A stretch of 63,715 nt of DNA, counting the filler, from Candidatus Tectimicrobiota bacterium (lineage in GTDB: Bacteria > JACPSX01): assembly GCA_016193065.1 (NCBI GenBank). It is 7 parts of 7 records of this genome, joined end to end, with 100 filler letters (N's around TTAATTAATTAA, not from the genome) between each part and the next. Parts side by side here need not be neighbours in the genome. Positions count along the whole stretch, not along the records: positions 39,804 to 45,668 come from JACPSX010000153.1; 6 more parts are not named here. One strand, given 5' to 3'. This document shows, one piece after another, positions 8,539 to 61,161 of the stretch; position 1 is the first letter of the stretch, and each line of letters starts with the position of its first letter. Under the pieces are notes generated by a model. That model was not told the DNA's origin. It made no database searches and was given only the letters and a program-made list of their open reading frames with translations. The position numbers were made by a program, and so were the translations under genes.

Positions 8539-8575
8539 TCTTTTCTCTGAAGCTGCAAAAACTGATGGACGCGGG

Positions 8576-8995
8576 CTAGTAGTGGTGCAGCAGCCAATAG
8601 ACGACCCAGCCGGTGCCCGCCACGTAAAGCCAGATGGGCAGCGCCACGCGGGCGATGCGCTTGTGACGGGCAAAGTCCGAACGCAGAGCCCGGAATAGAG
8701 CCAGCAGGACCAGGGGAACCAGCGTGATCGCCAGCACGCTGTGGGATCCCAGGATCGCCAGGTAAAGAAGGCGGACTGCCCCCTGGCCACGGAAGGGAGT
8801 GGTGGCGGCCAGGGCCCAACGGGTGAGGTAAACGATCAGGAATGAGGCGGCCAGGGTCGCGGCGCCCATCATGCAGAGCTTGTGGCGGGGCACGTTGTGG
8901 CGGCGGATGAAGGCAAAGCCGAGAAGGGCGAGAAGGCCGCTGCCCAGGATCAGCACGGCGCCCAGGGCCGGGAGAGTTTCGATGAGCGCGGTCAT
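8576..8995 (-). CDS. DUF420 membrane protein (oxidase assembly-associated)
   Basis: HKLCM..A, YLAILGSH, HKRIARVALPIWLYVAGTG; downstream of ctaB. Confidence 0.9.
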   Translation of the reverse strand: MTALIETLPALGAVLILGSGLLALLGFAFIRRHNVPRHKLCMMGAATLAASFLIVYLTRWALAATTPFRGQGAVRLLYLAILGSHSVLAITLVPLVLLALFRALRSDFARHKRIARVALPIWLYVAGTGWVVYWLLHHY

Positions 8996-9005
8996 GGCCT
9001 CTTGT

Positions 9006-9872: not shown

Positions 9873-9900
9873 TGCCGGGTCTCTCAGGGGAGTGCCCTCC

Positions 9901-10854
9901 TCAGATTGATTGCTGTTCTAAAACCAGCACTGGCGGTTTTAAGACGGCAGGCCTCAAGCATGCCGCGGAAAGGAAGACCATGGTGGCCAGGAGCGCCTCC
10001 GCATTGGCCAGATGAAGGACGGTCAAGAGCGGAGCAAGTCGGGAAGAGACCGCCAGTGCGCCCAGAAGGATCTGCACTCCGACCAGAACGGTGGCCACTG
10101 TGGGCAGCACGCTCAAAAACGGCTGCTCTCTGAGCGCGTCTCGCGCGCGCACCGCGGCCAGAAAAATCAACACTGCGACCAGGATGGCTCCGACACGGTG
10201 GCTGAAGTGGAAGACGGTCAGACCCTGCAGTGGAGGGATCACCTCGCCTTGACAGAGAGGGAGATCCGGGCAGGCCAAGCCGGCGCCGCTGTGGCGGACA
10301 TAGGCGCCCAGGATCATCTCCAGGTAAAGTACCCCCGTGGCCGCCAGGGGCCAGAACGGCGGGGGCCGCCCCGGGTCGACTTCCAGCGCGCTGAAATCGC
10401 GGGCTGGCACCCCGGGTACCCTCTGGGTGACGGGTACCCGGCTCAGAATCAGCATAAGGGCCAGAATGACCAGGAGAGCGCTGCCCAGAGCCAGGTGCGC
10501 CGTGACGATTTCGACGGGGAGTTCCCCCAGCACGGTGACGGCTCCCAGGAGAACCTGGGCCAGCAACAGAAACAAAGCAACTCCCGCCGCAGCCCCGACT
10601 CCTGGGATCCGGCGGCGTCTGCGCCAGGCTGTCACGGCGGTGCTGAGAACCAGCAGACCCACCAGGGCTGCCAGGACCCTGTGGCCGTATTCAATGAGGA
10701 CGGGGCCTTCGAGAGGCGGAATCAGTTGTCCTCGACAGAGAGGCCAGTCCGGGCAAGCCAGACCGGAGCCCGTGGCGCTCACGATGCCCCCCACCACCAG
10801 CAGGAGATAGGTCGACGCCAGGCTGATCCAGGAAAGCCGTTCCAGTGTCTTCAT
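9901..10854 (-). CDS. ctaA: Heme A synthase (COX15/CtaA)
   Basis: Duplicated GLACPDWPLC / GLACPDLPLC motifs, IEYGHR, HFSHR and conserved His ligands. Confidence 0.95.
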   Translation of the reverse strand: MKTLERLSWISLASTYLLLVVGGIVSATGSGLACPDWPLCRGQLIPPLEGPVLIEYGHRVLAALVGLLVLSTAVTAWRRRRRIPGVGAAAGVALFLLLAQVLLGAVTVLGELPVEIVTAHLALGSALLVILALMLILSRVPVTQRVPGVPARDFSALEVDPGRPPPFWPLAATGVLYLEMILGAYVRHSGAGLACPDLPLCQGEVIPPLQGLTVFHFSHRVGAILVAVLIFLAAVRARDALREQPFLSVLPTVATVLVGVQILLGALAVSSRLAPLLTVLHLANAEALLATMVFLSAACLRPAVLKPPVLVLEQQSI

Positions 10855-11145
10855 GAGCTTTACTGGCGCGGGTCTCCTCGCCTGTTCAAAAAAAGACAGG
10901 GTGAAACCCGGCCGCTCTCTCCCGCCCCGCCTGCGTACGTGCGGGATGGGACTGTTTCACTGCTTTATCTGCGCAGACCGCATAAAAAATTGAGGAGGTG
11001 GTGAACGATGCTGCAACTGCCACTTGCATTCCCCCTCGCGCAGATTATAATAGGTCACGTTTGCGTGTCCGTCCACCCGTATTTGCACATTTTTGGGCAA
11101 ACCAATTAGGGACCATAGCTCGGGAGGTACTGTGACGAGGCTTCC

Positions 11146-12858
11146 GTGGTGACCCGGCAGAGGGATGCTCGGTTCCATTTCTTCCTCTTTGCCGCGGCGA
11201 TTCTCGCCCTCTTGTCCGCCGCTCCCGCCCTGGCCCAGGAGGCCGGCAAGGAGGTCGCCTACCGGGCCTTCCCCCTCATAGGCTCCCGCCTAGCAGTCTG
11301 GGCGGTAGCTCAAATTCATCTCAATTTTGCCGCTTTTATCCTCGGTGTCCCCGTCTTTGCCGTCATCATCGAAATCATGGGCTGGCGCACCAGTACTGCC
11401 CTGTTGGGCGGCCTGTTCCTCTTTATCCTGGTCGGTTTTTACCCCAAGTTCTGGTCGTACATGAGCGGCATTTTTTACTCAACCTTCTGGGTGTACGGGA
11501 TCCTTTTTTTCCTGGAGACCTTCACGGTTTACCTCTGGTACTACGGGTGGGAGTGGCTCAGCGGAGCGAAGAAGTGGATCCACGTTTGCCTCGGGGTCCT
11601 TTCGAACCTCTTTGGTACCGCGATCCTCTTCGTGGCCAATGCCTGGGTTACTTTTATGGTTTCTCCCGGAGGGATTGACGAGGCGGGAAATTTAAAAAGT
11701 CTCTGGGGGGCCATTAACAACTTCACCTGGATGCCCATCAACATTCATAGAATCATCGCCAATATTGTTTTTGGAGGCACCATTGCGGCCGCTTACGCGG
11801 CTTTCCGTTTCCTGTCGGCCAGCTCCGATGAGGAGCGGGCCCGTTACGACTGGATGGGGTACATCGGCAACTTCGTGGCGATCTCCGCCTTCATCGTGCT
11901 CCCCTTCGCCGGCTACTGGCTGGGACGCGAAATCTACGCATTTAATCAGACCATGGGCATCACCATGATGGGCGGGTTCCTTTCCTGGCTCTGGATCATC
12001 CAGGCGATCCTGATCGGCGTGCTCTTCATCGGCTCCAACTACTACCTCTGGCTGGGAATGGAGCGGATCCCCGGATCTGAGCGCTACCGCAAGTACATCC
12101 CGTACCTCCTCATGGTGATCGCCGCGGGGTTCATCGTGTGGGCGACTCCCAGAAGCATGGTCATTACCCTTCAGGAAGCGCGCGCTATGGGGGGAACCCA
12201 CCATCCGCTGCTCGGCCTCCTGGGCGTCATGTCCGCCAAGAACACCGCGGTGAACCTCATGATCCTCACCACGTTCCTGTCGTTCCTGCTCTACCGCCGC
12301 GCCAACCGGATCTCCACCAAGCCCTGGGTCGGCACTGGCATGGCCGCCCAGTGGGCGACTTTCGGGCTGGCGGCGGCCGTCGTCACCTTTTTCGGAGTCT
12401 ACGGATACTTCGTGGAATCCATCGTGCGCATCGGCTTCTCGGTTTACCAGGTACTGTCCGTGCTGGGGGCTATCGTGCTCGTCATGGCTATCGATATCCC
12501 CATGTTTCGGGGTGCCAGGTCCACCGGGACCATCCGCTGGGGCCAGATTGCCCCGCGCTCCCAATATATATTGATCCTGCTGGCCGTGACCTTTACATGG
12601 CTTATGGGTCTCATGGGCTTTGCCCGCTCCGCGATTCGACAGCACTGGCATGTTTACGGCGTGATCCGCGACACTTCCCCTGATGCGGTAACCCCCGCCT
12701 TGGGATACGCAGCAAACGTGATCACGTTGGTTACTATTGTCTTCCTTTTACTCGTGATGTTCATCTTTTGGCTGGGCGGCCTTGGTGAGAAGGGGAAGGA
12801 GAAAACCCACGGAGCGGTTGCCCCGGCTGTCGCCGCTGGTTCCGGGGATCGGAAATAG
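11146..12858 (+). CDS. Cytochrome bd-like oxidase subunit I (CydA-like, Nitrospira OR-N-like)
   Basis: QIHLNFAAF, FFLET, ANAWVTFMVSP, NIHRIIAN and RSAIRQHWHVY parallel the CydA motifs; many TM segments; no cydB follows. About 20 aa appear missing near 11391. Confidence 0.82.
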   Translation: MVTRQRDARFHFFLFAAAILALLSAAPALAQEAGKEVAYRAFPLIGSRLAVWAVAQIHLNFAAFILGVPVFAVIIEIMGWRTSTALLGGLFLFILVGFYPKFWSYMSGIFYSTFWVYGILFFLETFTVYLWYYGWEWLSGAKKWIHVCLGVLSNLFGTAILFVANAWVTFMVSPGGIDEAGNLKSLWGAINNFTWMPINIHRIIANIVFGGTIAAAYAAFRFLSASSDEERARYDWMGYIGNFVAISAFIVLPFAGYWLGREIYAFNQTMGITMMGGFLSWLWIIQAILIGVLFIGSNYYLWLGMERIPGSERYRKYIPYLLMVIAAGFIVWATPRSMVITLQEARAMGGTHHPLLGLLGVMSAKNTAVNLMILTTFLSFLLYRRANRISTKPWVGTGMAAQWATFGLAAAVVTFFGVYGYFVESIVRIGFSVYQVLSVLGAIVLVMAIDIPMFRGARSTGTIRWGQIAPRSQYILILLAVTFTWLMGLMGFARSAIRQHWHVYGVIRDTSPDAVTPALGYAANVITLVTIVFLLLVMFIFWLGGLGEKGKEKTHGAVAPAVAAGSGDRK

Positions 12859-13698
12859 ATGCGCCTGCCAATCGTTGTAAAAATCAGTGTGTTTGCCCTG
12901 GCTGTAATGGGGGTGTACACATACTATGCGAACTCCATCCCCCAGATTCAGTCCAAGCCCCCCGAGGAGCTCTCCCTGGAAGGAGGGAACGTGACTCAGG
13001 AGCAGCTCATCAAGGCGGGTGAGGAGATCTTCAAAGGGAAAGGTACCTGCGAGGTCTGCCATCGGATCGGCCAGGCAGGGGCGCGGGCTCCGGATCTGGC
13101 CGGCATGGGAGCGCGGGCGGTCAAACGGAAGCCCGGTCTTAGCGCGAAAGCCTACCTGATTGAGTCTCTCCTGGACCCCGGGGTTTACCTGGTGGAAGGG
13201 TATCCCAACATCATGCCCAAGGTAGACAAGCCCCCCATTGCTCTAAACCGCTCCGAACTGTGGGCCGTCACGGCCTTCCTGGAGTCCCTGGGTGGCACGG
13301 TGGACGTGGCGCTGGACGACATCCCGAAATCTGCAGGGGCCGGCGCCGCGGGTGGGGGAGCTCAGGTGGCGGAGCTGAAGCTGCCGGGCGACCCCAAGGC
13401 CGGGCAAGCAGTCTTTACTGGCAAGGGGGCTTGCGTGGCCTGCCATAAGGCTGGTTCCATAGGTGCTTCTCCCGTGGGGCCTGACCTCTCACAGATCGCT
13501 AGGATCCAGACACCTGATTACATTATGGCGAAGATTCTCGACCCGGCCGCAATGGGGACTGTGGCTGGATTTCCTCCCAAGGTAATGCCCCAGACGATTG
13601 GCCAGACCCTCACCGCGAAAGAGTACGTGGATCTCGTGTCGTTTCTCCTGACCCTCAAGGGCAGCAGCGCTACTCCGGCCCCGCAGGGCAAAAAGTAA
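12859..13698 (+). CDS. Membrane-anchored diheme cytochrome c
   Basis: N-terminal TM; CEVCH and CVACH, each with a downstream axial Met (NIMP, KVMP). Confidence 0.92.
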   Translation: MRLPIVVKISVFALAVMGVYTYYANSIPQIQSKPPEELSLEGGNVTQEQLIKAGEEIFKGKGTCEVCHRIGQAGARAPDLAGMGARAVKRKPGLSAKAYLIESLLDPGVYLVEGYPNIMPKVDKPPIALNRSELWAVTAFLESLGGTVDVALDDIPKSAGAGAAGGGAQVAELKLPGDPKAGQAVFTGKGACVACHKAGSIGASPVGPDLSQIARIQTPDYIMAKILDPAAMGTVAGFPPKVMPQTIGQTLTAKEYVDLVSFLLTLKGSSATPAPQGKK

Positions 13699-13701
13699 TT
13701 T

Positions 13702-15891
13702 ATGATTCGATCGAAGTTTTTCCAAGCAATTCTCGTTCTGGTTTTGGCTTTTGCGTTTTTCCGCTATGGGATCCGCCCGCCGGCCCCTTGGAGCGTGGTC
13801 TACCTGTACATGGGCATCGTGCTTCTGGCAGTCTTGGTCTACATCTCCTCGGACTCGGATTCCTGGCGGGCCTTCCTGCGACCCATCCATTTGGTTCTGG
13901 TCGATGACGAGAAGCGTCCCATCCGGCTGCTGCTCATGGTTCTCTTGCCTCTCTTTCTAGGGTACTACGCATACTCCCAGGCTGCCGCCAAGGTGGAGGC
14001 TCCTCCCGAGCTGCGGGCGGTTCACCCTGCACCCGCTTCGTCCATTTCTTTCCGCGGGAAGACAATTGACGTCCAGGGGTTCGAGAATCCCCTCCGGAAG
14101 GACGCTGCCAACCTCCGGAAGTACGTGGACGAAGGAGGGGAGATTTACGTTAAGAACTGCATGTTCTGTCACGGCGACAACTTGGACGGCGAGGGGCCAT
14201 TTGCCCACGCTTTTAGCCCTCCCCCGGCCATTTTTACCGACCCAGGCACCATTGCCATGCTCCAGGAGGCATACCTGTTCTGGCGGATCGCGAAAGGGGG
14301 ACCGGGCTGGCCAAAAGAGTCCACCCCATGGAATTCGGTCATGCCGGCCTGGGAGGATCGCCTGACGGAGGAGGATATCTGGAAGGTCATCATGTACCTT
14401 TATGACGCCACTGGATTCCAACCCCGTCGCTGGGAGGCAAATGCTGCACTGATTCCCTTTCCCTCCCAGGGGGAGAGTGCGGGGAAAGCTGTGGCCGCTC
14501 GGGTACCCTCGTCTTCCCTCCGTTCCCGGCGAGCGGAAAGGGGGCTGTGGAGTCCCGCCCTGGCAGAAGCGCAGCAGAGGGGGGACATGAATGCAGGCAA
14601 GGCAGTCTACGGAAAGAAGTGCGCCATTTGTCACGGGGAAAAGGGAGATGGGAACGGACCTGGAGCGTCCGACTTAGTCATCACAGCGCGGATGCCAGGA
14701 ACCTCCATGCCTCCCTGGAAGGGGCTTCCGGAAAAAGACCGCTGGAATCTGGTGGCGTACATAAAGACTTTTACCCCGGACTTGTTTAAGGGGACGCCGA
14801 AGGTGTTGGATCTCCCGAAGGAAGTCCCGCCTTCCAAAGAGTCTATCGTTCGTGGGAAAGAAATGTACGAGGCCATCGAGTGCAACAAGTGCCACGGCCG
14901 TGCGGGCCGGGCAGATGGACCCTCGGCTCCGGAACTCAAGGATGATTGGGAGCAGCCGATCCGTCCGGCCGATCTGACCAAACCCTGGAACTTCCGCGGC
15001 GGTGAAAGTAAGAAAGAAATCGCTACCCGTCTGGCCACTGGTCTCGCGGGCACTCCGATGCCAAGCTTCCTGGACAGCGTGGAGAAGCCCGAGGACATCT
15101 GGCACCTGGCAAATTACGTCAAGTCTCTGGCGCCGGACAAACCCAACTATGCCACCTTCCTAAGGGTGAAAAAAGTGGAGGGGGAAATTCCCGCTGATCC
15201 CGGTGCGCCGTTCTGGAGTCAGCAGGCCCCGTCCAATTTTCCCTTGGCGGGGCAGGTGATCGTGGACATGAGGAATTTCAACCCGTCCATTGACATGATC
15301 ACAGTGAAGGCGGTTTATTCTAGCCGGGAAATTGCAATTCATCTGACCTGGAATGATCCCACAGGCTCCCGACCGGACCCGGCCGCAAAGACCTTTGCCG
15401 ATCAGGTGGTCCTCCAGTTTCCGGTCAAGCTTTCCGAGGGCAACGAGCGTCCCTATGTCCTCATGGGCGATGGCTCGAACCCGGTCTACCTTCTGCGCTG
15501 GAGTAGCGATGGCGGAGTGGGGGAGGCCAACGCCACAGCAATCAGCAATCTCACCCCGCAGCCCGCTCAGGCAGTGGAGGCGAAAGGGACGGGGGTTTTT
15601 GCGGACGGCCAATATCGCCTCGTGATCAAGCGCCCCTTGCAGACGCCCGATCCTAACGATCTGCAGTTTCCGGTGGGTAAATTCTTTCCAGTTGCCTTCA
15701 TGGCCTGGGACGGCGGGGCCGGGGAGACCGGAAGTGACATGTCCTTTTCTTCGTGGTATTATTCCGTACTTGAAGAGCCAAGCTCGAAACGACCGTATGT
15801 GATTCCGCCCGTGGTGGTCCTTGTGTCCGTGGCAGCGGAGCTCTTGATCGTTCGCCGCGCGCAACGGAAGGCCCGGGGGAGCGTGAATTAA
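13702..15891 (+). CDS. Membrane-bound triheme cytochrome c fused to an EB_dh/DOMON-like heme b domain (NxrC/EbdC-like)
   Basis: Three N-terminal TMs; CMFCH, CAICH, CNKCH; C-terminal LTWND, DQVVLQFP, PYVLMGD, VAFMAWDG and SSWY; C-terminal TM. Confidence 0.85.
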   Translation: MIRSKFFQAILVLVLAFAFFRYGIRPPAPWSVVYLYMGIVLLAVLVYISSDSDSWRAFLRPIHLVLVDDEKRPIRLLLMVLLPLFLGYYAYSQAAAKVEAPPELRAVHPAPASSISFRGKTIDVQGFENPLRKDAANLRKYVDEGGEIYVKNCMFCHGDNLDGEGPFAHAFSPPPAIFTDPGTIAMLQEAYLFWRIAKGGPGWPKESTPWNSVMPAWEDRLTEEDIWKVIMYLYDATGFQPRRWEANAALIPFPSQGESAGKAVAARVPSSSLRSRRAERGLWSPALAEAQQRGDMNAGKAVYGKKCAICHGEKGDGNGPGASDLVITARMPGTSMPPWKGLPEKDRWNLVAYIKTFTPDLFKGTPKVLDLPKEVPPSKESIVRGKEMYEAIECNKCHGRAGRADGPSAPELKDDWEQPIRPADLTKPWNFRGGESKKEIATRLATGLAGTPMPSFLDSVEKPEDIWHLANYVKSLAPDKPNYATFLRVKKVEGEIPADPGAPFWSQQAPSNFPLAGQVIVDMRNFNPSIDMITVKAVYSSREIAIHLTWNDPTGSRPDPAAKTFADQVVLQFPVKLSEGNERPYVLMGDGSNPVYLLRWSSDGGVGEANATAISNLTPQPAQAVEAKGTGVFADGQYRLVIKRPLQTPDPNDLQFPVGKFFPVAFMAWDGGAGETGSDMSFSSWYYSVLEEPSSKRPYVIPPVVVLVSVAAELLIVRRAQRKARGSVN

Positions 15892-15905
15892 GGAGGAACA
15901 GGTCA

Positions 15906-16622
15906 ATGCAACGAGTGCTCAGGTGGTTTTTCATTGCTGGTGTTCTGGCATTGTCGCTTCCTTTCTTGGCGGGAATCTCCCCGGAAGTGAACGCGCAGAG
16001 CAGTGGAAGCATTGTTGGGGAAGTGAAGTACAACGGAACCCCACCCGCCCCGAAGGTGATCAAGGTGAACAAGGACAACCAGGCTTGCGGGAATGAGAAG
16101 ACCTCTGAGGAACTGGTGGTCGGGGCGAACAAGGGGATCCAGTGGGCCGTGGTGTCCGTAGTAGGGGCCAAGGGTCCGGCGCCGAAGCCTGCTCAGAAGC
16201 CGACTCTGGATCAGAAAGGATGTCACTTCCAGCCCCACGTCCTGCTGGCGCCGGTCGGGGTCGGGATCGATATCCTGAACTCCGACGGGATCCTCCACAA
16301 TATCCACACGTTCTCGAAGGCCAACCCTTCCTTTAACAAGGCCCAGCCGAAATTCAAGAAGGTAATTACCGAGAAGTTTGACAAACCCGAGGTCGTCAAG
16401 ATCCGGTGCGACGCCCATAGCTGGATGTCCGGATGGGTCGTGGTCCAGGAGCACCCCTTCTATGCGGTAAGCGATGCGAATGGGTCGTTCAAAATCGACA
16501 ACGTCCCGCCCGGAAAGCACAAGCTCGAGTTGTGGCACGAGACTCTGGGCAAAGTCGCGAAGGACGTCGAGGTCAAGGCGGGCGCTCCAACCAAAGTTAC
16601 CTTTGAGCTGACCAAGAAATAA
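15906..16622 (+). CDS. Secreted cupredoxin-like protein within a carboxypeptidase-regulatory-like scaffold
   Basis: Signal peptide; ILHNIH plus CDAHSWM (type-1 Cu His/Cys/His/Met set); C-terminal GSFKIDNVPPG..WHE. Confidence 0.8.
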   Translation: MQRVLRWFFIAGVLALSLPFLAGISPEVNAQSSGSIVGEVKYNGTPPAPKVIKVNKDNQACGNEKTSEELVVGANKGIQWAVVSVVGAKGPAPKPAQKPTLDQKGCHFQPHVLLAPVGVGIDILNSDGILHNIHTFSKANPSFNKAQPKFKKVITEKFDKPEVVKIRCDAHSWMSGWVVVQEHPFYAVSDANGSFKIDNVPPGKHKLELWHETLGKVAKDVEVKAGAPTKVTFELTKK

Positions 16623-16665
16623 TTCGGAAGAACCCGACGGGCCGTAGAATCTTGAGGGGGTTGCC

Positions 16666-16863
16666 ATGCGTCTGGTGATATTCCATAAGATCCTGATCGG
16701 GACGGCCGTCCTTTTTGGGCTGGGCTTCTCCGGATGGGAATTCTTAAGCTACAGGCGCACGGGCCATGTGGAGGACCTGGTTATCTCCGTGTCTGCCGTG
16801 ATGATTTCCGCGGCCTTGGGGTACTATCTGAGGAACCTGAAACGGTTTTTGGCGTTGCCTTAA
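16666..16863 (+). CDS. Small two-TM membrane protein
   Basis: GAGGGGG RBS; 65 aa with two hydrophobic helices; last gene of the bd-like operon. Confidence 0.65.
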   Translation: MRLVIFHKILIGTAVLFGLGFSGWEFLSYRRTGHVEDLVISVSAVMISAALGYYLRNLKRFLALP

Positions 16864-16911
16864 GAAGCGCGGGTCTCCCGGCAGGACGGTCCGGCAAACC
16901 CCTGAATTAAA

Positions 16912-16940
16912 TTGACAGGGTGGGATCGCAACGCTACCAT
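16912..16940 (+). promoter_or_regulatory. Sigma70-type promoter of the cox operon
   Basis: TTGACA-17bp-TACCAT. Confidence 0.6.
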
Positions 16941-17105
16941 TGCCATTTTGATGGGCTGAGCAGACCCAGAAAGGGACAGCGAAGCCGGCATTTGGGATAC
17001 GGCCGGCCTAGCCGTCTGCACGGTATGATCCGGAGCGCGAGGTTCCGGATCGGATTTTCCTCGAAAGAAAAGCAGTCATAGAGGTCTTAAGAGGGGGATA
17101 CCTCG

Positions 17106-17765
17106 ATGATGAGCTGGCTTCCGGAAAACGTCTCGTCCTACGGCGGGGCGGTCGATTCTCTATTTTACCTCGTCTACTACATCACCGGTGCAGTGTTTTT
17201 CCTGGTCATGGGGTTAATGATCTTCTTCCTGGTGAAGTACCGCCACCGGGAAGGCCGGCGGGCCAGGTACAGCCACGGGAACAACACGCTGGAGATCCTC
17301 TGGACTGTCGTTCCGGCTCTGATCCTGGTGGTGCTGACGGCATTGAGCGTGCCTACCTGGGCGAAAATCAAGAGTCACATCCCGCCGACCGACCTCACGA
17401 TCCAGGTCATTGGGAAGCAATTTAACTGGGAGGTCACGTACGCCGGTCCGGACGGCAAGTTCGGCACCGAGGACGACAGGACCTTCGACAACGAGATGCA
17501 TGTCCCTGTAAACGCGCCCGTAAAAGTCGTCCTTCTTTCCAAGGACGTGATCCACAGTCTCTTCCTGCCGAACCTCCGTTTCAAGCAGGACGCGGTGCCT
17601 GGACGGGAAATCCCCCAGTGGTTCCAGGCCACCAAGACGGGGAAGTACGTGATCCCGTGCGCGGAGCTCTGCGGGTTCGGGCACTCCGGGATGCAGGGGT
17701 ACCTCTACGTCCACACTGCGCAGGAGTACGAGCAGTGGGTGAAGGAACAGTGGCCCTCATCATGA
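17106..17765 (+). CDS. coxB: Cytochrome c oxidase subunit II
   Basis: LEILWTVVP, DVIHS and CuA motif CAELCGFGHSGM; no fused cytochrome c. Confidence 0.97.
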   Translation: MMSWLPENVSSYGGAVDSLFYLVYYITGAVFFLVMGLMIFFLVKYRHREGRRARYSHGNNTLEILWTVVPALILVVLTALSVPTWAKIKSHIPPTDLTIQVIGKQFNWEVTYAGPDGKFGTEDDRTFDNEMHVPVNAPVKVVLLSKDVIHSLFLPNLRFKQDAVPGREIPQWFQATKTGKYVIPCAELCGFGHSGMQGYLYVHTAQEYEQWVKEQWPSS

Positions 17766-22889: not shown

Positions 22890-22989
22890 NNNNNNNNNNN
22901 NNNNNNNNNNNNNNNNNNNNNNNNNNNNNNNNNTTAATTAATTAANNNNNNNNNNNNNNNNNNNNNNNNNNNNNNNNNNNNNNNNNNNN
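22890..22989. other. Artificial contig linker; identical linkers at 29805-29904, 39704-39803, 45669-45768, 56857-56956 and 61062-61161
   Basis: 100 bp of N44-TTAATTAATTAA-N44 (stops in all six frames); genes are truncated at most of these linkers. Confidence 0.98.
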
Positions 22990-29339: not shown

Positions 29340-29914
29340 CAGCCGTCCCCCCGCACAGTCACCGCCCCGCCGGGTACCCGCCCCGCCGGGTACCCGCCCC
29401 GCGGGTGCTGCACTTTGGAATCCGCAAGTCCACTACCATACCCATGCTCTTTATCACTATAATGCAATTCCCCCATTTTTCATAGCCCGCGATGGCAGCC
29501 CCGAGGACCTGACCGGAGACCGGGGTGCCCCTTGGGCACCCGCTCTTGCGGGTACCCGGTAAACTTTTGCTCGCGAGGGCGATTTAGGGTTCATCCTTTC
29601 TCGCATGCGAGGAGATTCAAACCTTGCGCCGGCGACGCCTGCAAAACTTTAAGTCGCCCTACGGGGCACACCCGGTCTCCTTGCGCTTATCCTCCCCTCG
29701 CTACGCTCAAGCGATCAATCATCATCCTTCATTTCCGAGAGGGTTGCCCCCGTAGGCGATCTAAGGGGTTGCGAGGAAGAGGACCCTCGATTCCGCCAAC
29801 ACAANNNNNNNNNNNNNNNNNNNNNNNNNNNNNNNNNNNNNNNNNNNNTTAATTAATTAANNNNNNNNNNNNNNNNNNNNNNNNNNNNNNNNNNNNNNNN
29901 NNNNGATGCAAATG

Positions 29915-39703: not shown

Positions 39704-39803
39704 NNNNNNNNNNNNNNNNNNNNNNNNNNNNNNNNNNNNNNNNNNNNTTAATTAATTAANNNNNNNNNNNNNNNNNNNNNNNNNNNNNNNNNNNNNNNNN
39801 NNN

Positions 39804-41159
39804 CTCGCATCGAAGAAGCTCAACCTGGAGATGTTGATCGAGCGCCGCGCTCGGGCGCAGGAGCGCCGCCTGGTCCCGGAAACGATCGCGCGGTTCATCC
39901 GCGAGGCCGCTGAGTACGTCCCGTTTAGCCTGAAAACCGTCTCTCAACTGCCCCACGCATTTGAGCCGGGCCGAACGCCCTCCGTCCTGCGGCGCTACGA
40001 GAGAGACCCGGACTGGAAACTTCCAGCGCTTGCAACCAAGTACCCCCGTTGTTCCACGGATCGCGAAACCGCTGAGAAAAACAACCTGGAATGGGTCACC
40101 CCGGGTCATCCCCTCTTCGAGGCAGTCCGGCGGCATACCTACCTGCAGGGCCTAGACCCATTCGGGAAGGGAGGGTGCTTCTATTCATTGCAGCACGATA
40201 AGCCAGTCCGTATCGACTTCTATAAGGCTCGGGTGGTAGATGGACTTGGGCATGTGACCCACGAGAGGCTGTTTGCCGTGGAAACCTCGGAAGACGGAGA
40301 GCCCCGATTACAGGAACCTAGCATGCTCGGGAACTTCACCCCGACCGAACCTCCGGATGCGATTCCCTCTGTTGCGACGGTTCCGGATGTGGGTGCATGG
40401 CTGAACGAGCACGCTCTCACACCATTTCTGGAAGAGACCCGCGCTGAGCGCATCGTTGAGGTCGATCGGATTGCATCTCATGTGGAACTATCGCTGACGG
40501 AGCTGCTCCAGCGGGCGGACGAGGAAATCGGAAGAGCGGCCGGTGAGGTCGAGCAGAAAGTCTCCGGTGCAGAAGGCCGCCTCGCCTTAGCCGAGACGCG
40601 GCACGCCGACCTTCTGAGCCGCCGGGATCGGCGAAGAAAGGAACTAGAGCAGCAAAGGTCTCTCTCTCTGCAGGCCGTGGAGCTCATTACAAGTGGCCTG
40701 ATTCTGCCCCATCCGGAGCGCGATACGCCGGAAGTCCAGCGTCTTCGCCCCAACCTGGAAACTGAAGCGATCGCAATGGATATGGTCATGGAATACGAGC
40801 GGAATCAGGGCCGCCAGGTATATGATGTCCACGAGAAGAACCTAGGCTATGACATCACCAGTCTGGACTTGAATTCCGGCGAGCTCCGACTTATCGAGGT
40901 CAAGGGCCTGGGGGCGGCAAGCGGCACGATTCTTCTAACACCCAACGAATGCCGCGTGGCCGAGGACCGCCGCGATTGTTATTGGCTCTACGTTGTCACC
41001 CACTGCGGTACGCAACCTCAACTACAGGAACCGATCAAAGACCCAGCCCGCTTCGAGTGGCACGAGGTCACGAAGGTGGCTCACTACTACTTGTCGGTGG
41101 ACGCCTTGACGAAACCGATGCAGGTGCGAGAAGATACGCCAAGATACGGGGGACAATAA
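39804..41159 (+). CDS. C-terminal part of an SNF2-type helicase with a DUF3883 (NOV-C-like) nuclease domain
   Basis: EERRLVPE-like segment (QERRLVPE), PGHPLFE, and EAIAM..YER..GYDI..IEVKG..LTPNE..YWLYVV. Frame is open from the contig start. Confidence 0.85.
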   Translation, partial: LASKKLNLEMLIERRARAQERRLVPETIARFIREAAEYVPFSLKTVSQLPHAFEPGRTPSVLRRYERDPDWKLPALATKYPRCSTDRETAEKNNLEWVTPGHPLFEAVRRHTYLQGLDPFGKGGCFYSLQHDKPVRIDFYKARVVDGLGHVTHERLFAVETSEDGEPRLQEPSMLGNFTPTEPPDAIPSVATVPDVGAWLNEHALTPFLEETRAERIVEVDRIASHVELSLTELLQRADEEIGRAAGEVEQKVSGAEGRLALAETRHADLLSRRDRRRKELEQQRSLSLQAVELITSGLILPHPERDTPEVQRLRPNLETEAIAMDMVMEYERNQGRQVYDVHEKNLGYDITSLDLNSGELRLIEVKGLGAASGTILLTPNECRVAEDRRDCYWLYVVTHCGTQPQLQEPIKDPARFEWHEVTKVAHYYLSVDALTKPMQVREDTPRYGGQ

Positions 41160-41160
41160 T

Positions 41161-41802
<642 letters not shown>

Positions 41803-41833
41803 TCCCCAACAACGCAGACCGGAGGTGGTTAGA

Positions 41834-41980
41834 GACCCCGCCCGCTTCGAATGGCACGAGGTTATCAAGGTCGCTCACTACTACCTGTCGGTGGACGCGC
41901 TGAGCGGGCCGATGCAAGTGCGGGAGGACTCTACCCTTTATGGCAAAGGCCTCGAGTCTGGTGAAGGAGAGGATAAATGA
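41834..41980 (+). repeat. Relic second copy of the helicase 3' end
   Basis: 41834-41944 aligns without gaps to 41040-41150 (31/37 aa identical); its stop overlaps the TIR start (ATGA). Confidence 0.9.
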
Positions 41981-42110
41981 TCAAGCGAAGGATATTTATA
42001 AGCTTCGACCATGCCGATACTGACAAAGTAAACGGATTTCTTGGCTTACGGAACATAATGGATGGTTTTGAGTTTTACAACCACAAGCTGGATCATCGAA
42101 TCAAGAGCAG
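41977..42110 (+). pseudogene. Truncated TIR-like (ThsB/DUF1863-type) gene
   Basis: GAGGA RBS; MIKRRIFISFDHAD..; similarity stops after about 45 aa, where it joins an antisense ORF. Confidence 0.65.
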
Positions 42111-42712
42111 CAGAGAGGGACCCGATGGATGGTTGATCCAGATGTGCCACTTGCCGTCAATGATCTGTACGTATTGGTGCCAACGCATTCGCAACGGCGA
42201 GAAATGTGCACAGGGCTGAACAGAACGTGCTAGGCTCGCCCAAAATGAATCCCACGACTCACCCCACAACCCTGTAATGGACACCTGCGGCCATACCTTT
42301 GCCTCAAGATGCTTTCTGAGTTCACCAGCGCTTAGTCGTTCTTCGTTCCACTGATTCAACAGACGGACTTTATCGAGATCGTGGGAGATCCCAAGGGCCA
42401 CAAGAGACAGCGCCTCAACGGCATCGCGCAGAAGACCCACGGCAACTGCGTGAGCACCGCCCTCATTAAGCCAGACGAGAGAGCCGGACGCTCTCAAGAC
42501 AGTGCTTGCCAGTATAGTGCGGGATAAACTGCAACTGCAAATCGGACACAGGCGGTTGGTCGGCCCAAGTACCGCGTATAGTGCGGGATAAACTGCAACT
42601 GCAAATCGGACACAGGCGGTTGGTCGGCCCAAGTACCGCGTACGACGGATTGGAGCTCAACGTTTAGAGGCTCGTGCGTCTTCTTCCAATAATCCGGGTC
42701 TCCCTTTGGCAT
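42093..42712 (-). pseudogene. Integron cassette ORF of unknown function, frameshifted and truncated
   Basis: Starts 23 bp after the attC core GTTGGGC with a GAGGA RBS; exact 64-bp tandem duplication at 42512-42639 plus a further frameshift near 42468. Confidence 0.7.
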
Positions 42713-42734
42713 GATGTCCTCACATGATCCTGCG

Positions 42735-42836
42735 GCCCAACGCCGGCCGTAACCCGCGGCGGGCGCGAAACGTGCGCCATGAGCACAGCCGCCGCATGTG
42801 GGAACGCACGCCGTCGGGTTCACGGCCTTGTTAGCT
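42735..42836 (-). mobile_element. attC site (102 bp)
   Basis: Minus strand: AGCTAAC-5bp-CGTGAACC...GGTTACG-6bp-GTTGGGC; L''/L' pair perfectly apart from the single extrahelical base. Confidence 0.88.
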
Positions 42837-42879
42837 TGCCTGATGTGCACCTTCAGTTTCTGTGACTGCATCGTTCACT

Positions 42880-45366
42880 TCACGATTCTGACCGTCCGCG
42901 TCTCTTCTCGTAGGTGATCAAGACCCGCGTAGCGCAAGCACCTGGATGATGCTTGACCTCGGCTCCTGTGAAGACACTGAAGATCCAACCGAGTTCGGTC
43001 AGCTTGTTGCGCTGCCGCCAGTCCTTCTGCCAGCGATCGGGGCGGAGATGCCATTCGGCTCCATCGCAGTACACGGCGTACCGCAGCTCCGGAAAGGCGA
43101 AATCAGCTCGGGTCACCAGGTGTCCCCCTTCGTCGCGGATCTCGTACTGGGTTACAACCTCCGCTAAGGCCTCGTGCTCGCGCATCGCAGCGAGGAGGGC
43201 TTCTTCGACCGGCGATTCGCACTCCCAGATCCGGGCCGGGGCGGGTATCGGCGCAGCCACCGTGACTTGCCGGCTAGGCTGCGTCCGAACCACCAGGTCC
43301 CACAGCAACGGGTTGTGTTCGGGGCGAGCAACGCGTTGAAACCATGCTCGATCCGCGATGATGACAACCTTCCCGCGGGCGCGCGTGATTGCCACGTTCA
43401 CAAGCCTGAGCCCTACATCTCCACGGAGTAAAGCCCCGAGCTCCGTCCTGCCCACGCCGTCTACGACGTCGAAAACCACGCAGTCCGCGTCGCTTCCCTG
43501 AAACTGATGAACCGTACCCGCTTCAATTCGTCTGTAGGCGGGGTTCTCGGACCGCGCTTCGTGGCGAAGCCACTTTCTGAGAAGTCTGACCTGTGCTCGG
43601 TAGGGTGCAATGATCGCAATGGAAAGGTCCTGCTGCGCCTCGCCGACAGCGGCACAGGCAACTTCCATTGCAAGTTCGGCGGAAACAACGTTCCGCCAAC
43701 TTTCGTGCGCCCTCTCACAGCGCGCGGCCAAGGCCGAAGTTTCGAGGAGCACTACGGACTCCCCCCGGCGAGGGGGAAGGTCCCTCAGCCACTCAAGGTC
43801 CGTTTCGTTGACGCCGCTGGAGACGTGAGGGTAGAGCGTCTGAACGCGCGCCCAGATTCCGGCGCAGCATCGTCGCTGCGCGTCGATGCGGGTTAGTCGA
43901 TTGTCCGACAAGCGAATCGTCCTTGCCTCACCCTCGCCCTGTGAAATACCGGCCTTCTCGAAGATGTCCCGCCCCATCCACTCGATGGTTGGTGGCGAGC
44001 CCCCGTGTGACTCGAAGACCGGGCCAAGCTGACGCGGGTCTCCCGCTAGCAAGAACCGAGAGCGCGCGAGAGAGCCGAGAAATGCGCACTGGGCCGGGGG
44101 CACCATGGTGACTTCATCAACCAACACGCTGGACCATGCTATGTCACTGATGGGGTTTGCTTCAGAGCTGAGATAGGCCAGCGTGCTCGTCGTGAAGACG
44201 ACGGCACTTTGACGGATGTGTGCCTGAATGGCACCGCGAAGCTCCTCTTGGACGGTAAGAAGCTCGGCACGAAGGGTGGCGAGCTTCTCCTCCGGTTCCT
44301 GCCTTCGTTCTGCCTCGTGGATTCGCCGAGAAAGCTCCTTCACGGCGGTCGTCAACTCATTGAGATTCTCCGGGCCTAGCAATTCGGGCCGATCCATTAC
44401 CTCTGGCTTCCGTGGGTAACCGAAGCGAAGGATTCGTCGATCGGCAAGGTAAGCCTGGAGAGTGCTTGCGCCGTCACAGTGCAGCAGAAACTGCAGGACA
44501 GCGACGTCCACGGCGCGGTTGGAGGGAGCGACAACTAAGTGTTGTTCGTTTGGCGCGTGTTGAAGGAGCCCGGCCACAAGGCGGCCTATGGCGTAGGTCT
44601 TACCGGCTCCCGGCGGCCCCCACAGGAATCTCGCCCACGGCGTAGGGAGACCGGCGAGCCGGTCAGCTAGCGCGATGGCATCATAGTCACACAGCGAGTC
44701 TCCGGGGGGCTGAACCGCGCCGTTCAGGAGCCTCCGGGCCAGCGGAGGCATCTCAGGAAGCCCAGCGAGCCGCGTCGCGAGCGAATGCAACAGGAAGGCG
44801 CGGTCGACCTGAAGAACACCTGGCACGCAATCTGGAAAGATTTCGTTCTGCAACGCGAGATAGACTGCGGCGCCGTCAGGCTCCTGCCCAACCACCTTGC
44901 CACTGGTTCGCCAGCCACTTGGGGAGCGGAAGGTGACCGGGGTGTCGGTGGCGAAGGTCTCCTCTGAATCCACGAACAGCGCCTGGACAACTCGAGGGCC
45001 TACATGCGCACCTCGACTGACAGACTGGACGTGGAATGTGAGGGGTCTCAGAGTCGAGGCATACTCCTTGACAGCGTTGGCGATCTGGATGGTCACCTTC
45101 TCCGGGGGGACGGGAATTGTCGCAAGCCGATGGTAAACCTCCCACCCATGCGGGCTGAGTCTCACAACTCGCTCGTTCTTGCTGAAGAGCTGTGTCGCGT
45201 CCGGCAAGTCAGCCAACGCCTTGACGAGCTGTGTGAACTCCTCCGAACCCTCGAGCCTCCTGGCAACGCGCGCCCAGGGAACCCATCCATCCCTCGTAGT
45301 GGCCCCAAGCTCGGCGACGGCCCGAAGAAGGCGGAGAACGTCTTCTGTGATGGGGGTAGACATCAC
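42880..45366 (-). CDS. SF1 (UPF1/DNA2-like) helicase fused to a C-terminal Vsr/DUF559-like endonuclease
   Basis: GPPGAGKT, APSNRAVD, VDE, GDPRQLGP, APYRAQV, TVHQFQGSD and NVAITRAR; C-terminal ESPVE..ADFAF..YCDGAEWH..LGW. Confidence 0.9.
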   Translation of the reverse strand: MMSTPITEDVLRLLRAVAELGATTRDGWVPWARVARRLEGSEEFTQLVKALADLPDATQLFSKNERVVRLSPHGWEVYHRLATIPVPPEKVTIQIANAVKEYASTLRPLTFHVQSVSRGAHVGPRVVQALFVDSEETFATDTPVTFRSPSGWRTSGKVVGQEPDGAAVYLALQNEIFPDCVPGVLQVDRAFLLHSLATRLAGLPEMPPLARRLLNGAVQPPGDSLCDYDAIALADRLAGLPTPWARFLWGPPGAGKTYAIGRLVAGLLQHAPNEQHLVVAPSNRAVDVAVLQFLLHCDGASTLQAYLADRRILRFGYPRKPEVMDRPELLGPENLNELTTAVKELSRRIHEAERRQEPEEKLATLRAELLTVQEELRGAIQAHIRQSAVVFTTSTLAYLSSEANPISDIAWSSVLVDEVTMVPPAQCAFLGSLARSRFLLAGDPRQLGPVFESHGGSPPTIEWMGRDIFEKAGISQGEGEARTIRLSDNRLTRIDAQRRCCAGIWARVQTLYPHVSSGVNETDLEWLRDLPPRRGESVVLLETSALAARCERAHESWRNVVSAELAMEVACAAVGEAQQDLSIAIIAPYRAQVRLLRKWLRHEARSENPAYRRIEAGTVHQFQGSDADCVVFDVVDGVGRTELGALLRGDVGLRLVNVAITRARGKVVIIADRAWFQRVARPEHNPLLWDLVVRTQPSRQVTVAAPIPAPARIWECESPVEEALLAAMREHEALAEVVTQYEIRDEGGHLVTRADFAFPELRYAVYCDGAEWHLRPDRWQKDWRQRNKLTELGWIFSVFTGAEVKHHPGACATRVLITYEKRRGRSES

Positions 45367-45437
45367 ATCCTACTCAATCTCAATCATGAGGCGGCGTCCC
45401 CGGAGATGGCGCGTAATCGCCACGTGCGTCGTGGGCA

Positions 45438-45509
45438 AGCTAACGCGCACGTTGACCGGCCGCGGCGAGCGAAGGCGAGCCAGCGGTCCAGTCGAACGTG
45501 TTGTTCAAG
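45438..45509 (-). mobile_element. attC site (72 bp)
   Basis: Minus strand: CTTGAAC-5bp-GTTCGACT...GGTCAAC-6bp-GTTAGCT with an internal palindrome. Confidence 0.85.
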
Positions 45510-45768
45510 TAAGCCGCTTCGCGGCAGCGTGATCTTCCCATTGTAACAAACTTCCTTCCTCCTGCCGCCAAAAAACTCTGTAAAGGGCTTCCCGTACCCG
45601 CCGGTGATCTGCTTTCCTTCTCCTAGTCCACCCCGTCAACGGACCCCTCAAACCCCCAGAGAAGGAGANNNNNNNNNNNNNNNNNNNNNNNNNNNNNNNN
45701 NNNNNNNNNNNNTTAATTAATTAANNNNNNNNNNNNNNNNNNNNNNNNNNNNNNNNNNNNNNNNNNNN

Positions 45769-54959: not shown

Positions 54960-56856
54960 TCAGACTCGCCAGTCTAGGATCTTCTGGATATATCCTTCTT
55001 GCTGGCGCAGCAGCGGATACTCACGCTCCAAGATTTGCCAGCTTCTAGTGCCAGCGTCGGGTATGTTTTGGAGAGCCGTATCCGTAAGAAATTCGCTTCT
55101 CCGCGAAGGGGGTCTCCCGGCTTAATCTGCTCAGTTCCCTCAAGACATCGAACTTCTCGCGATTGCCTTCGAGCCCCCCATGGTGGAGGCCATGGGGATC
55201 GAGAAATCGCACATGCGTCCTTTGTTCGGCGCGATTTCTAATCCACAGGATAAAGTCCGGGTAAAAACCGCTGCGGCGGAAGAATCCGACGCCCACTTTG
55301 GGAAGGTTACGAAGGAGGAAGAGTTCGAGGTGACAATATGGCTCGGCTTCGTGGTTGTTCCTCCAGAAGTCCCGCAGATCCTCTGCAAATTTAGCCTCCG
55401 CCTTCCCCAGCCCCGGAGGACTCACGGACATGTCTTTCGCCCAGTCCCCTTCGGAACTCAGAAGAAGCGGGCTAAAAAGGTGCTGGTCAACGTGGAGACG
55501 AGGCAGTGGTTTCCCACCATCACTGAATAGCTCCGTCGGGTTACGGAGCAATGCCTCCAACTCCTGGAGCAACTCCTCAGAAGTGACCCGANNNNNNNNN
55601 NNNNNNNNNNNNNGAGACGACGCTGTCATGGACAGCCGGCAGTGAGCCCAGTTCCAAATGCCGGCCCTCCGCTTCCCTCTCCATGCAAGCGACGAATCTG
55701 TCCAAATAAGTCTTCAATACCCTTAATGCCCCTTCCTGCACCAAATGCGGATTGAAGAGGTCATCCGCGGGTATGGAGAGGGTGCTATTTTGCAGAATGG
55801 ATGAAAGATGGCTGCGCGGAACATAAAGATTTCCACAGTCCCGAGCAGCCTTGTACTCAACCAGATCCGCGTGCAGTGTATCCAGATCCAACAGTCCCAC
55901 GTTCGTTGCATCCGAAAAATCTACTCGTTTCCGCTTCCCCATCCACTGAGTGGGAACATCTCGGCCCGATACGGCCGTCACTTGCGGAGTTAAATCCACC
56001 GAGACATGGAGAGGTTCCACGCTGAGAGTCCAGGTCTCGGATTCCACCTTGTAACCGGACTGGGGTTTTGGGATAGGCAGCTCCGGCCATGGATCGAAGG
56101 ACTTCCGGACCGGAATACGGAGTTCCTGGCCCAGATCCTCTTGCCCCAGCATCTCCCGGAAGGACTGGATGTAGTCCGCGTTCCAACCGAAAATGAAAAG
56201 GGTTTCGAGTCCGTCCAAACCTTCGGGGTGGGGAGCCTCCTCGGGAAGTGCCGCGCTCCGCTTTAGAGTCCATTTCTTGCCTTTCAACCTCACACCGCGT
56301 CCAAAGAGTTGGATCACCTGAGGTCCTTCCCCCTTCCCGATATTGAGGAGCCCCATCGCGGAAACCCGCCAACTCGACCACCCCTCAATGAACTTCTTCG
56401 CTCCAATCAGCAAGTTTACCCGCGAATCCGGCGCATTGACCGCTGCAAAGAGCGAGGGCGTAAACCGGTCTTCCCGGACCTCGATTCCAAGGTTCTCCAT
56501 CAGGTGCTTCTTGAAAGCCGACACGTCGCCGATGTTGATGACCCCAAAGTAGTGGTTCTCCTTTCCTTCCGGTGCCGAGACCCGCAGGGCCAACTCGCCT
56601 TCCGCGCCTTTGATCTCCCACACTTCCAGGCCGCCTTGCCCGTGAAGCATCTCTGCGGCAATCTGCTTGTAAAGGCCGTCGGCATCTTTTTTCTTGAGAT
56701 AGTTAAGACGCGAAGCGAAGAGGTCCTCCCTTGAATCCTGGTCGGTAAAGCCGCTCTCTCCTCTCAGGATTCGCCGCATGCTTTTCACGGCCCAATCCCG
56801 ATCTTCCAGAAAATGTCTAAGGAAAGCGACGACCGTAGCCACATCGCTCCGCTTCT
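54960..56856 (-). CDS. Type III restriction enzyme Res-like helicase/nuclease, 5'-truncated, with a gap at 55592-55613 and a frameshift near 55088
   Basis: IGAKKFIEGWSSWRVSAMGLLN, IQLFGRGVRL and FYPDFILW..FLDPHG; the C-terminus continues in another frame to TGA at 54960. Confidence 0.8.
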
Positions 56857-56956
56857 NNNNNNNNNNNNNNNNNNNNNNNNNNNNNNNNNNNNNNNNNNNN
56901 TTAATTAATTAANNNNNNNNNNNNNNNNNNNNNNNNNNNNNNNNNNNNNNNNNNNN

Positions 56957-60970: not shown

Positions 60971-61161
60971 GAGTGTTTCGGAGCAGAAAGCCAATGGGTG
61001 TGCCATCACATAAATAAAAATTTAAGCCTGCCTCAGAAGCTGTCAAGGGAAATGGGGAAAGNNNNNNNNNNNNNNNNNNNNNNNNNNNNNNNNNNNNNNN
61101 NNNNNTTAATTAATTAANNNNNNNNNNNNNNNNNNNNNNNNNNNNNNNNNNNNNNNNNNNN

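Follow-up and report, generated by a model that had tools for sequence, protein, structure and literature searches.

A 2.7-kb integron cassette carrying a helicase–nuclease gene, a candidate single-gene defence, in an uncultured groundwater bacterium

Is the long helicase–nuclease gene on a short contig of an uncultured bacterium really an integron cassette, has it moved between genomes, and what might its product do? These questions arise from a 63,715-base stretch of DNA from Candidatus Tectimicrobiota bacterium (assembly GCA_016193065.1), referred to here as the window. An earlier note, made from the sequence alone, described a cassette encoding a single-chain superfamily 1 (SF1) helicase with a nuclease tail, and proposed that it is a self-contained defence module. 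The window consists of seven contigs joined artificially, and the cassette lies on the fourth of these (39804–45668; 5,865 bp); hence, only genes on that contig are physically linked to it. We find that this contig is an array fragment from an uncultured groundwater bacterium with an Acidobacteria-type integron. In the reading we favour, the cassette is genuine and mobile, and the stand-alone helicase–nuclease that it encodes is most likely a single-gene defence.

Cassette limits and flanking attC sites

The cassette contains a single gene, which is intact and encodes the helicase–nuclease (Table 1). Its start is tied to its end by complementarity: GTTAGCTTGCC (45444–45434) is the exact 11-bp reverse complement of GGCAAGCTAAC (42840–42830), just as the earlier note had reported. 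This 11-base complement of the R'' end is made up of G45444 of the upstream R' box and the first 10 bases of the cassette. The open reading frame (ORF) described in that note, 828 codons from GTG 45366, is present as well. However, homologues begin at its second codon, ATG 45363, which makes this the likely start and gives a protein of 827 aa.

Inverse core sites of attC follow the consensus RYYYAAC (R'') and GTTRRRY (R'). Of the two R' boxes, GTTGGGC of the cassette's own attC fits in full, and GTTAGCT of the upstream attC fits at 6 of 7 positions. Each flanking site folds as a hairpin with bulges, enclosed by AAC...GTT. In the L''/L' stems of the cassette's own attC, an extrahelical G and an extrahelical A lie six base pairs apart, a spacing that we take to be like that in the attC of aadA7.

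To score such sites, we tried a hand-written scanner for AAC/GTT hairpins. It found the true sites, but also wrong-strand matches (4 versus 5) and, in the flanks of 33 loci, AT-rich hairpins that had arisen by chance. Because the scanner lacked strand specificity, covariance models were used instead. The first model, R1, was built from nine seed sites from the window and related records, both window sites being among them. In the RNAalifold consensus of these nine sites, the 4-bp R''/R' helix is followed by a spacer of unpaired bases and then by two stems, of 5 and 6 bp, separated by a 2-nt bulge; another bulge comes after the second stem. Both sides have changed in 13 of 19 pairs. The only R1 matches in the window were these two seeds, the cassette's own attC (42734–42837, minus strand) with 85.6 bits and the upstream site (45437–45507, minus strand) with 41 bits. 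For the cassette's own attC, recognition was strand-specific, with 14.8 bits on the opposite strand; the top strand of the site is the coding strand. Across 94 unrelated loci (1,049,562 bases), R1 gave two weak matches, of 21 and 16 bits. In the 3.3-Mb genome of a relative, the Acidobacteria metagenome-assembled genome (MAG) G001, it gave at least 23 matches at E ≤ 0.01. Four of these were seeds, and the count is a lower bound in that 150 of 1,782 first-look candidates were scored. The G001 matches cluster on the same strand within contigs, and one contig has six sites spaced 0.6–1.7 kb apart.

The second model, R2, was built from 25 sites, none from the window. Its alignment was guided by R1, because MAFFT misaligned the 3' arms of the seven non-window seeds, and some circularity therefore remains. 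R2 scored the cassette's own attC at 65.4 bits (E ∼1e-13) and the upstream attC at 27.4 bits (E ∼2e-4), and matched nothing else over the 63,715 bases, on either strand. Among the 25 sites, 92% of cells are paired, compared with 67% in shuffled alignments, and pairing falls to 23–50% once the partner is displaced. Of 19 pairs, 14 show changes in both bases. With these lineage-specific models, the two flanking sites proposed in the earlier note stand above background.

Table 1. Coordinates of the cassette, its attC sites, the regions of its product and associated features. Positions are those of the window, except in the last four rows, which refer to the named loci
Feature	Coordinates	Strand	Details
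Gene cassette, 2,703 bp	42741..45443	−	From TT of the upstream R' box to G of its own attC R' box
Single ORF, 827 aa from ATG 45363 (828 codons from GTG 45366)	42880..45363	−	Stop codon 42882–42880
Upstream attC (of the preceding cassette)	45437..45507	−	R'' GAACAAC 45506–45500; R' GTTAGCT 45444–45438; crossover between G45444 and T45443
Cassette's own attC	42735..42840	−	R'' AGCTAAC 42836–42830 within GGCAAGCTAAC; R' GTTGGGC 42741–42735
Winged helix, residues 1–87	45106..45366	−	VIA-align Z 9–11.4, root-mean-square deviation 2.3–2.8 Å over 75–80 residues, to Rio2 winged-helix and MarR-family domains
Stalk helices and beta-barrel (UPF1-like domain 1B), residues ∼88–240	44647..45105	−	Z 8.3–8.7 to 1B of SETX, IGHMBP2 and Dna2
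SF1B helicase core, residues ∼241–690	43297..44646	−	Pfam AAA_11, AAA_12; Foldseek
Vsr/MTES_1575-type endonuclease, residues ∼715–815	42922..43224	−	Motifs ESPVE, RADFAFP, VYCDGAEWH
Start of next cassette, 179-aa ORF with no assigned family	42093..42740	−	No further attC on the contig
MTase_III/UvrD-like/helicase–nuclease operon, L024	1–7298		MTase_III up to 1,372 bits and UvrD-like gene ∼700 aa (all four operon rows)
Same operon, L028	716–8508		
Same operon, L092	14–10421		
Same operon, L029 (partial)	16–2774		

The cassette in other genomic contexts

A copy of the cassette gene lies on a contig of the MAG (L081, that is, G001:C201), where 2,285 bases are 94% identical in nucleotide sequence. 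The shared sequence sets in at window position 45445, a single base ahead of the R' box GTTAGCT; upstream of this point, the flanks are unrelated. By comparison, identity between the window and G001 is only 70% for the housekeeping gene COX1. This gap would arise if the cassette is much more recent than the genomes, or if the contig has been mis-binned; in both cases, the cassette occupies two different contexts. The disparity between 94% for the gene and 70% for COX1 indicates that the cassette is horizontally mobile.

At the other end of L081, similarity stops at R'', where GCTAAC has become GCTAAT (AAC → AAT). The attC has been lost, and the gene is fused to the following 178-aa ORF (L081 1841–4940). 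This copy also has a ∼98-nt deletion that shifts the frame inside the winged helix, and the same deletion occurs in contigs of groundwater run X3 (see below). Also in the L081 array are a MazF-type toxin gene, a GNAT gene and a PIN/Phd pair, with an attC after each of them, and the array ends at housekeeping genes. A fragment of a group II intron reverse transcriptase/maturase lies at the array edge (L081 6–644); group II introns are known to target attC sites.

Other relatives retain attC sites. Two records with 92% nucleotide identity (L003 and L004) run past R'' into an attC with compensating changes in its arms, ending in GTTATGT. In two records that encode a protein with 73% amino acid identity (L001 and L002), an attC ending in GTTAGCT lies 65 nt upstream of the gene. 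Additionally, the gene in L001 is followed, after ∼200 nt, by a hairpin GGCCAAC...GTTGGGC (4222–4332; z −2.1 and −3.5). The lineage-specific models did not score this hairpin, and we count it as attC-like only.

G001 has a match to the integron-integrase profile TIGR02249 that scores 305.5 bits, above the cut-off of 265. In 14 control genomes, all 14 had matches to this profile and none exceeded the cut-off. On one contig of the MAG (L155, or G001:C134), the integrase match (685–2593) is split over two reading frames, and for that reason we regard this gene as frameshifted or mis-assembled; two attC sites lie downstream on the same strand. An integrase with same-strand attC sites downstream is in the 'inverted' orientation, as described for some environmental integrons.

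For comparison with metagenomes, we used Logan contigs (rather than raw reads) of four groundwater runs from one study, and the window may derive from one of these runs. Summed depth in the bin of the upstream attC was 359–17,135, versus ∼5–30 elsewhere, in values that were not used as copy numbers. Many of these contigs share the attC core and then diverge at 45440–45442, which is the G|TT point, and one contig of run X4 leaves at 42831, like L081. In run X4, the bins 42056–42750 and 45114–45391 were uncovered, which is no evidence of absence. The cassette limits 45443 and 42741, put forward in the earlier note, agree both with the break in L081 homology at 45445 and with these branch points. 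We are highly confident that the cassette is real and mobile. An integron integrase would act on the two flanking attC sites as folded bottom strands, recombine them at G|TT and so release the cassette as a 2.7-kb circle, which it would reinsert elsewhere. Such excision and reinsertion evidently took place, because the same cassette is found in different contexts in other genomes.

Several observations weigh against this reading. The contig holds only two attC sites, both on the same strand, and a profile search found no integron integrase on the 5,865-bp contig or on the other contigs of the window. In these respects the contig resembles a CALIN, the IntegronFinder class of attC clusters with no integrase. 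It is, however, only 5.9 kb long and ends 160 nt past the first attC, so that an integrase may lie beyond its end; moreover, the relative genome G001 has an integron-integrase match. R1 and R2 are lineage-specific rather than generic attC models, and the copy of the cassette in G001 is frameshifted and devoid of attC. Binning may also have wrongly grouped this contig with the other six of the window. A promoter and terminator scan of 42600–45668 found none, nor any sigma-70-like promoter in the cassette, whose ORF is thus promoterless-looking as judged from its sequence. Finally, larger cassettes recombine less well (10.64898/2026.03.17.712381).

Could the hairpins instead be other palindromic repeats, such as REP-like elements or terminators, next to an ordinary chromosomal gene? 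In favour of this idea are the absent integrase, the modest fold z-scores of single sites (−0.55 to −2.05, the upstream attC giving −2.05) and the first scanner, which had no strand specificity. Yet the R1 scores of the cassette's own attC differ sharply by strand, R2 scores both sites with no window site in its alignment, the boxes fit RYYYAAC/GTTRRRY, and homology breaks at G|TT. Furthermore, G001 has same-strand arrays together with an integron integrase above the curated cut-off, and the array contents, toxin–antitoxin pairs and a GNAT gene, are typical. We consider this explanation largely refuted and very improbable.

A UPF1-like helicase fused to a probable Vsr-type nuclease

Given a mobile cassette, what does its gene encode? 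An AF2 model of the protein (hereafter P0001), built with 32 relatives, had a mean predicted local distance difference test (pLDDT) score of 89 and a predicted TM score of 0.87. Foldseek searches returned IGHMBP2 (8.9e-27), followed by UPF1, DNA2, SETX and ZNFX1. The helicase core carries the motifs Walker A GPPGAGKT (250–257), DEVTM, GDPRQLGP, HQFQGSDAD and VAITRAR, all invariant across the 32 relatives, and matches Pfam AAA_11 (8.4e-17; 62 bits) and AAA_12 (2.2e-22; 80 bits), both cut-offs being 27. The Pfam matches, the structural matches and the conserved motifs all bear out the earlier assignment to the UPF1/DNA2-type SF1 helicases. A separate model of residues 1–244 (pLDDT 84) placed residues 88–204 on the 1B barrel of SETX, IGHMBP2 and Dna2, and the N-terminal winged helix, previously only a possibility, aligns with MarR-family and Rio2 domains (Table 1).

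The C-terminal 129 aa match MTES_1575 (2.6e-8) and Vsr (E 0.0078), in line with the nuclease tail described in the earlier note. Residues E721, D755, D768 and W772 are conserved in at least 90% of the 32 relatives, and H773 is present in most rows, at below 90%. We take the E721/D755/D768/H773 region to be equivalent to Vsr D51, T63–H64 and H69. Most relatives carry a precomputed PF18741 match. The tail can also be aligned to the nuclease of a Hhe/PDC-S37-like protein of 1,529 aa, with which it shares ESPxE, a conserved D and CDG..H; over 213 aa that include the nuclease and helicase motifs V and VI, the two proteins are 26% identical. Two points count against this assignment: the MTES_1575 scores of 30.4–34.3 bits lie below the gathering cut-off of 38.2, and the residue before CDG is Y, versus E in MTES_1575 proteins. 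When the nuclease tail was searched against PDB sequences, no meaningful match emerged; the top one was an IS621 transposase at E = 1.

A word-index search, in which 8,000 candidates were scored, yielded 158 proteins at E ≤ 1e-3, 120 of them listed. Most of the 120 are 800–850 aa long with the same domains, and many of ∼700 aa, among the matches listed, have no C-terminal module. Where present, this module varies: it is a Vsr-type nuclease, an FGE-sulfatase domain (5 of the 120) or pentapeptide repeats (1 of the 120). In the relatives with either of the last two (P0026, P0041, P0049, P0054, P0083 and P0070), the FGE-sulfatase or pentapeptide module stands besides the nuclease or replaces it. 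Source taxa include WOR-3, Chloroflexota, Nitrospira, Acidobacteria, Salinibacter and Planctomycetes/Planctomycetota. The N-terminal 244 aa were found at E ≤ 1e-3 in only 70 of 1.84 billion representatives, nearly all with the same architecture. The family is thus small, with ∼70 clusters at 50% identity. A tblastn search of a phage collection gave no match, and six records of a plasmid collection matched at up to 28% identity, in the helicase core only.

Does P0001 belong to a named defence system? Its best match in PADLOC v2 is MkoA (7.8e-41), which covers residues 248–689, the helicase core. No match to Hhe or PDC-S37 was found at E ≤ 0.1 in PADLOC v2, a point that also counts against a defence role. 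Among the 32 relatives, MkoA is matched by all 32, PDC-S37 weakly by 22 (best 4e-10) and Hhe weakly by 7 (best 3.9e-9). Because only helicase cores are matched, and no model over its full length, P0001 does not appear, from these profile searches, to be a member of any named system in PADLOC v2.

Several known systems nonetheless share parts of its plan. Hhe, reportedly described by Gao et al. in 2020, is said to be a single-gene system in which a helicase is joined to a Vsr endonuclease. Like P0001, it is one polypeptide with an SF1 (AAA_11/AAA_12) helicase and a C-terminal Vsr/MTES_1575-type nuclease. Hhe carries DUF4011 and DUF3320 parts, neither of which has a Pfam match in P0001. The PADLOC Hhe model has 1,911 positions, and P0001, at 828 aa, is less than half that size; the N-terminus, a winged helix and 1B barrel, is unique to the P0001 family. 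Membership in Hhe was rejected, there being no model match at the threshold above and no ∼1,900-aa architecture. In E. coli, Hhe is protective, and this activity is lost upon mutation of the nuclease site (10.1101/2022.06.16.496414).

PDC-S37, a PADLOC candidate for a large helicase–nuclease, has the same helicase plus MTES_1575 plan as P0001. Its model spans 1,550 positions, and P0001, with no match at E ≤ 0.1, was not assigned to it. Mokosh MkoA and MkoC share a UPF1/MOV10-like SF1 core with P0001. In the MkoA match, P0001 residues 248–689 align to positions 636–1090 of the 1,112-position model, and the N-terminal part of MkoA is missing. Mokosh has a PLD domain, whereas P0001 has neither a PLD partner nor a Pfam PLD domain, its effector being the Vsr-type nuclease. 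Membership in Mokosh (MkoA plus MkoB, or MkoC) was rejected on these grounds, a helicase-core match and no PLD. UPF1, IGHMBP2, SETX and DNA2 share with P0001 the two RecA domains and the stalked 1B barrel (Foldseek 8.9e-27 to 1e-23); however, identity is 17–20% and the accessory domains are not alike. The nuclease of Dna2 belongs to another type and lies at the N-terminus.

Defence neighbourhoods and the probable role of the protein

We examined 16 loci of relatives (36–55% identity), chosen for having several kb of flanking sequence; the remaining full-length loci were too short. Generic kinase, helix-turn-helix and methyltransferase matches were not counted as defence. A PADLOC defence match lay within 5 kb in 9 of the 16 loci, a raw count given with no background rate and with some loci related (L024/L028; L083/L086). 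These matches were a IIG fragment (L005), type I (L012), AbiEi (L026), PDC-S11 (L082), PDC-S09 (L084), and pPIWI-RE with type I (L090), the other three loci being L024, L028 and L092. LmuB-like, PDC-S37/Hhe-like and MTase_III matches are also among the types seen near relatives. Two further loci had conflict or toxin–antitoxin domains by Pfam only: L089 (EAD5, VMAP-C) and L015 (ParE/Phd, integrase). The remaining 5 loci (L083, L086, L087, L091 and L093) had no defence genes.

These five loci count against a defence role, as does the housekeeping-looking synteny shared by L083 and L086 (GlmS-like, LysM, peptidase M3). They fit an alternative in which the cassette is real but the helicase–nuclease serves host DNA metabolism (repair, recombination or end processing) and was merely captured by an integron. 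This alternative draws further on the closest folds, IGHMBP2, UPF1 and Dna2, of which Dna2 is a repair nuclease–helicase, on the role of Vsr as a repair nuclease, and on the lack of a full-length match to any defence model. However, family members are few and scattered over several phyla, the cassette is horizontally mobile (94% versus 70% for COX1), the gene is dispensable in that it is frameshifted in G001, relatives often lie beside restriction, Abi and pPIWI-RE genes, and the C-terminal module is swappable. These are traits of a conflict system, not of core repair, and we think a host-metabolism role unlikely.

A second alternative comes from the neighbourhoods themselves. In L024, L028 and L092, and partially in L029, a co-directional operon joins MTase_III, a UvrD-like helicase and the helicase–nuclease (Table 1), with 7–85 nt between the UvrD-like gene and the last. 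The L092 operon has an extra gene for a 1,030-aa SMC/AAA_21 ATPase, and in L028 the gene for the 1,529-aa Hhe/PDC-S37-like protein adjoins the operon. These three genes may make up an undescribed restriction-like system. If so, P0001 could be an orphaned restriction or translocase subunit of it, which alone would be inactive, or a toxic, selfish or addictive gene instead of a defence that discriminates. The conserved operon speaks for this possibility. But its helicase–nucleases are only 36–43% identical to P0001, closer relatives (50–91%) have none of these partners, the cassette form is intact with all motifs in several records (P0002–P0008), and Hhe works as a single gene (10.1101/2022.06.16.496414). 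We judge the orphan-subunit explanation to be quite improbable.

What remains, and what we believe to be the best reading given the protein architecture and the neighbourhoods of relatives, is that P0001 probably has a defence role. The winged helix and 1B barrel would engage nucleic acid, and the UPF1-like SF1B motor would use ATP to translocate, presumably 5' to 3'. The C-terminal Vsr-type endonuclease would then nick or cut the tracked molecule, which we presume to be DNA. Upon a putative trigger, the protein would by itself defend the cell against phages or other incoming DNA, in the manner of Hhe.

Such a role would have precedents among integrons. Integron cassettes carry defence systems that have attC-less homologues in defence islands, as set out in 10.1101/2024.07.02.601719. 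Among the more distant relatives of P0001, none has attC-like flanks, which fits the published recruitment of island defence genes into integrons (10.1101/2024.07.02.601719). Bacteriophage-resistance integron cassettes (BRiCs) and the defence cassettes of sedentary chromosomal integrons, described in 10.1101/2024.07.02.601719 and PMC12614218, likewise present a defence-type gene as an attC-bounded cassette. They come from mobile integrons and Vibrio superintegrons and were phage-tested, whereas the present cassette belongs to an Acidobacteria-type integron of an uncultured bacterium and is known from sequence alone. The word 'helicase' is absent from the texts of 10.1101/2024.07.02.601719 and 10.64898/2026.03.17.712381 in the parts available, which do not extend to the supplementary cassette lists.

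The wider defence island proposed in the earlier note fared less well. Genes on the same contig as the cassette include a DUF3883 (NOV_C) fragment and an MNT–HEPN pair, so these neighbours are as had been described. No TIR gene was found; the 179-aa ORF of the next cassette had no Pfam match even at E ≤ 10, its nearest Atlas clusters, DUF6988/DUF5677-like, are leads at 0.94, and it has no similarity to the 178-aa ORF 3' of the gene in L081. The DUF3883, MNT and HEPN genes lie on the strand opposite to the cassette and have no attC, which puts them outside the cassette array. Nor is the helicase the sole intact effector-like gene of the contig, since the MNT–HEPN pair looks intact too.

The DUF3883 fragment is a 442-aa ORF (39831–41159, plus strand) that matches only C-terminal parts of the PADLOC models HmaA and TmtA, and Pfam NOV_C. 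Only 27 nt separate its start from the contig end, so the assembly has probably truncated a larger helicase–DUF3883 gene, leaving just this 3' portion. Its 3' end is repeated directly after the MNT–HEPN pair, as a 111-nt direct repeat with 78% identity (41024–41134 and 41818–41928). The arrangement looks like an insertion of the pair into the DUF3883 gene, or a replacement of part of that gene by the pair. Within the next cassette, there is an exact 64-nt tandem duplication (42512–42639), present in single copy in the Logan contigs of runs X1–X3. The second copy may be an artefact of the present assembly; alternatively, the Logan contigs may have collapsed a real repeat. With either one or two copies, the next cassette has no long frame from its first ATG. 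Elsewhere in the window, the remaining contigs carry housekeeping genes. The joins are six 100-base linkers of the form N44-TTAATTAATTAA-N44 (22890–22989, 29805–29904, 39704–39803, 45669–45768, 56857–56956 and 61062–61161), and an extra run of 22 N occupies 55592–55613.

A more far-reaching reading is possible, and we offer it tentatively. P0001 may represent an unrecognised, compact, single-gene immune protein that soil and groundwater integrons recruited from defence islands and passed between lineages, while its distant relatives may be the cutting subunit of an undescribed MTase_III-like/UvrD-like/helicase–nuclease restriction-like system. Current views are not overturned by these findings, as defence cassettes in integrons and helicase–Vsr systems such as Hhe were already known. 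They do provide a clean and verifiable case of an oversized 2.7-kb, single-gene cassette moving between uncultured environmental bacteria, and they would mean that not only Vibrio and clinical integrons serve to store defence genes. A second lead is the operon that joins MTase_III, the UvrD-like helicase and the helicase–nuclease. The family itself, at ∼830 aa, is a tractable candidate both for phage defence and for the coupling of a UPF1-like motor to a Vsr-type nuclease.

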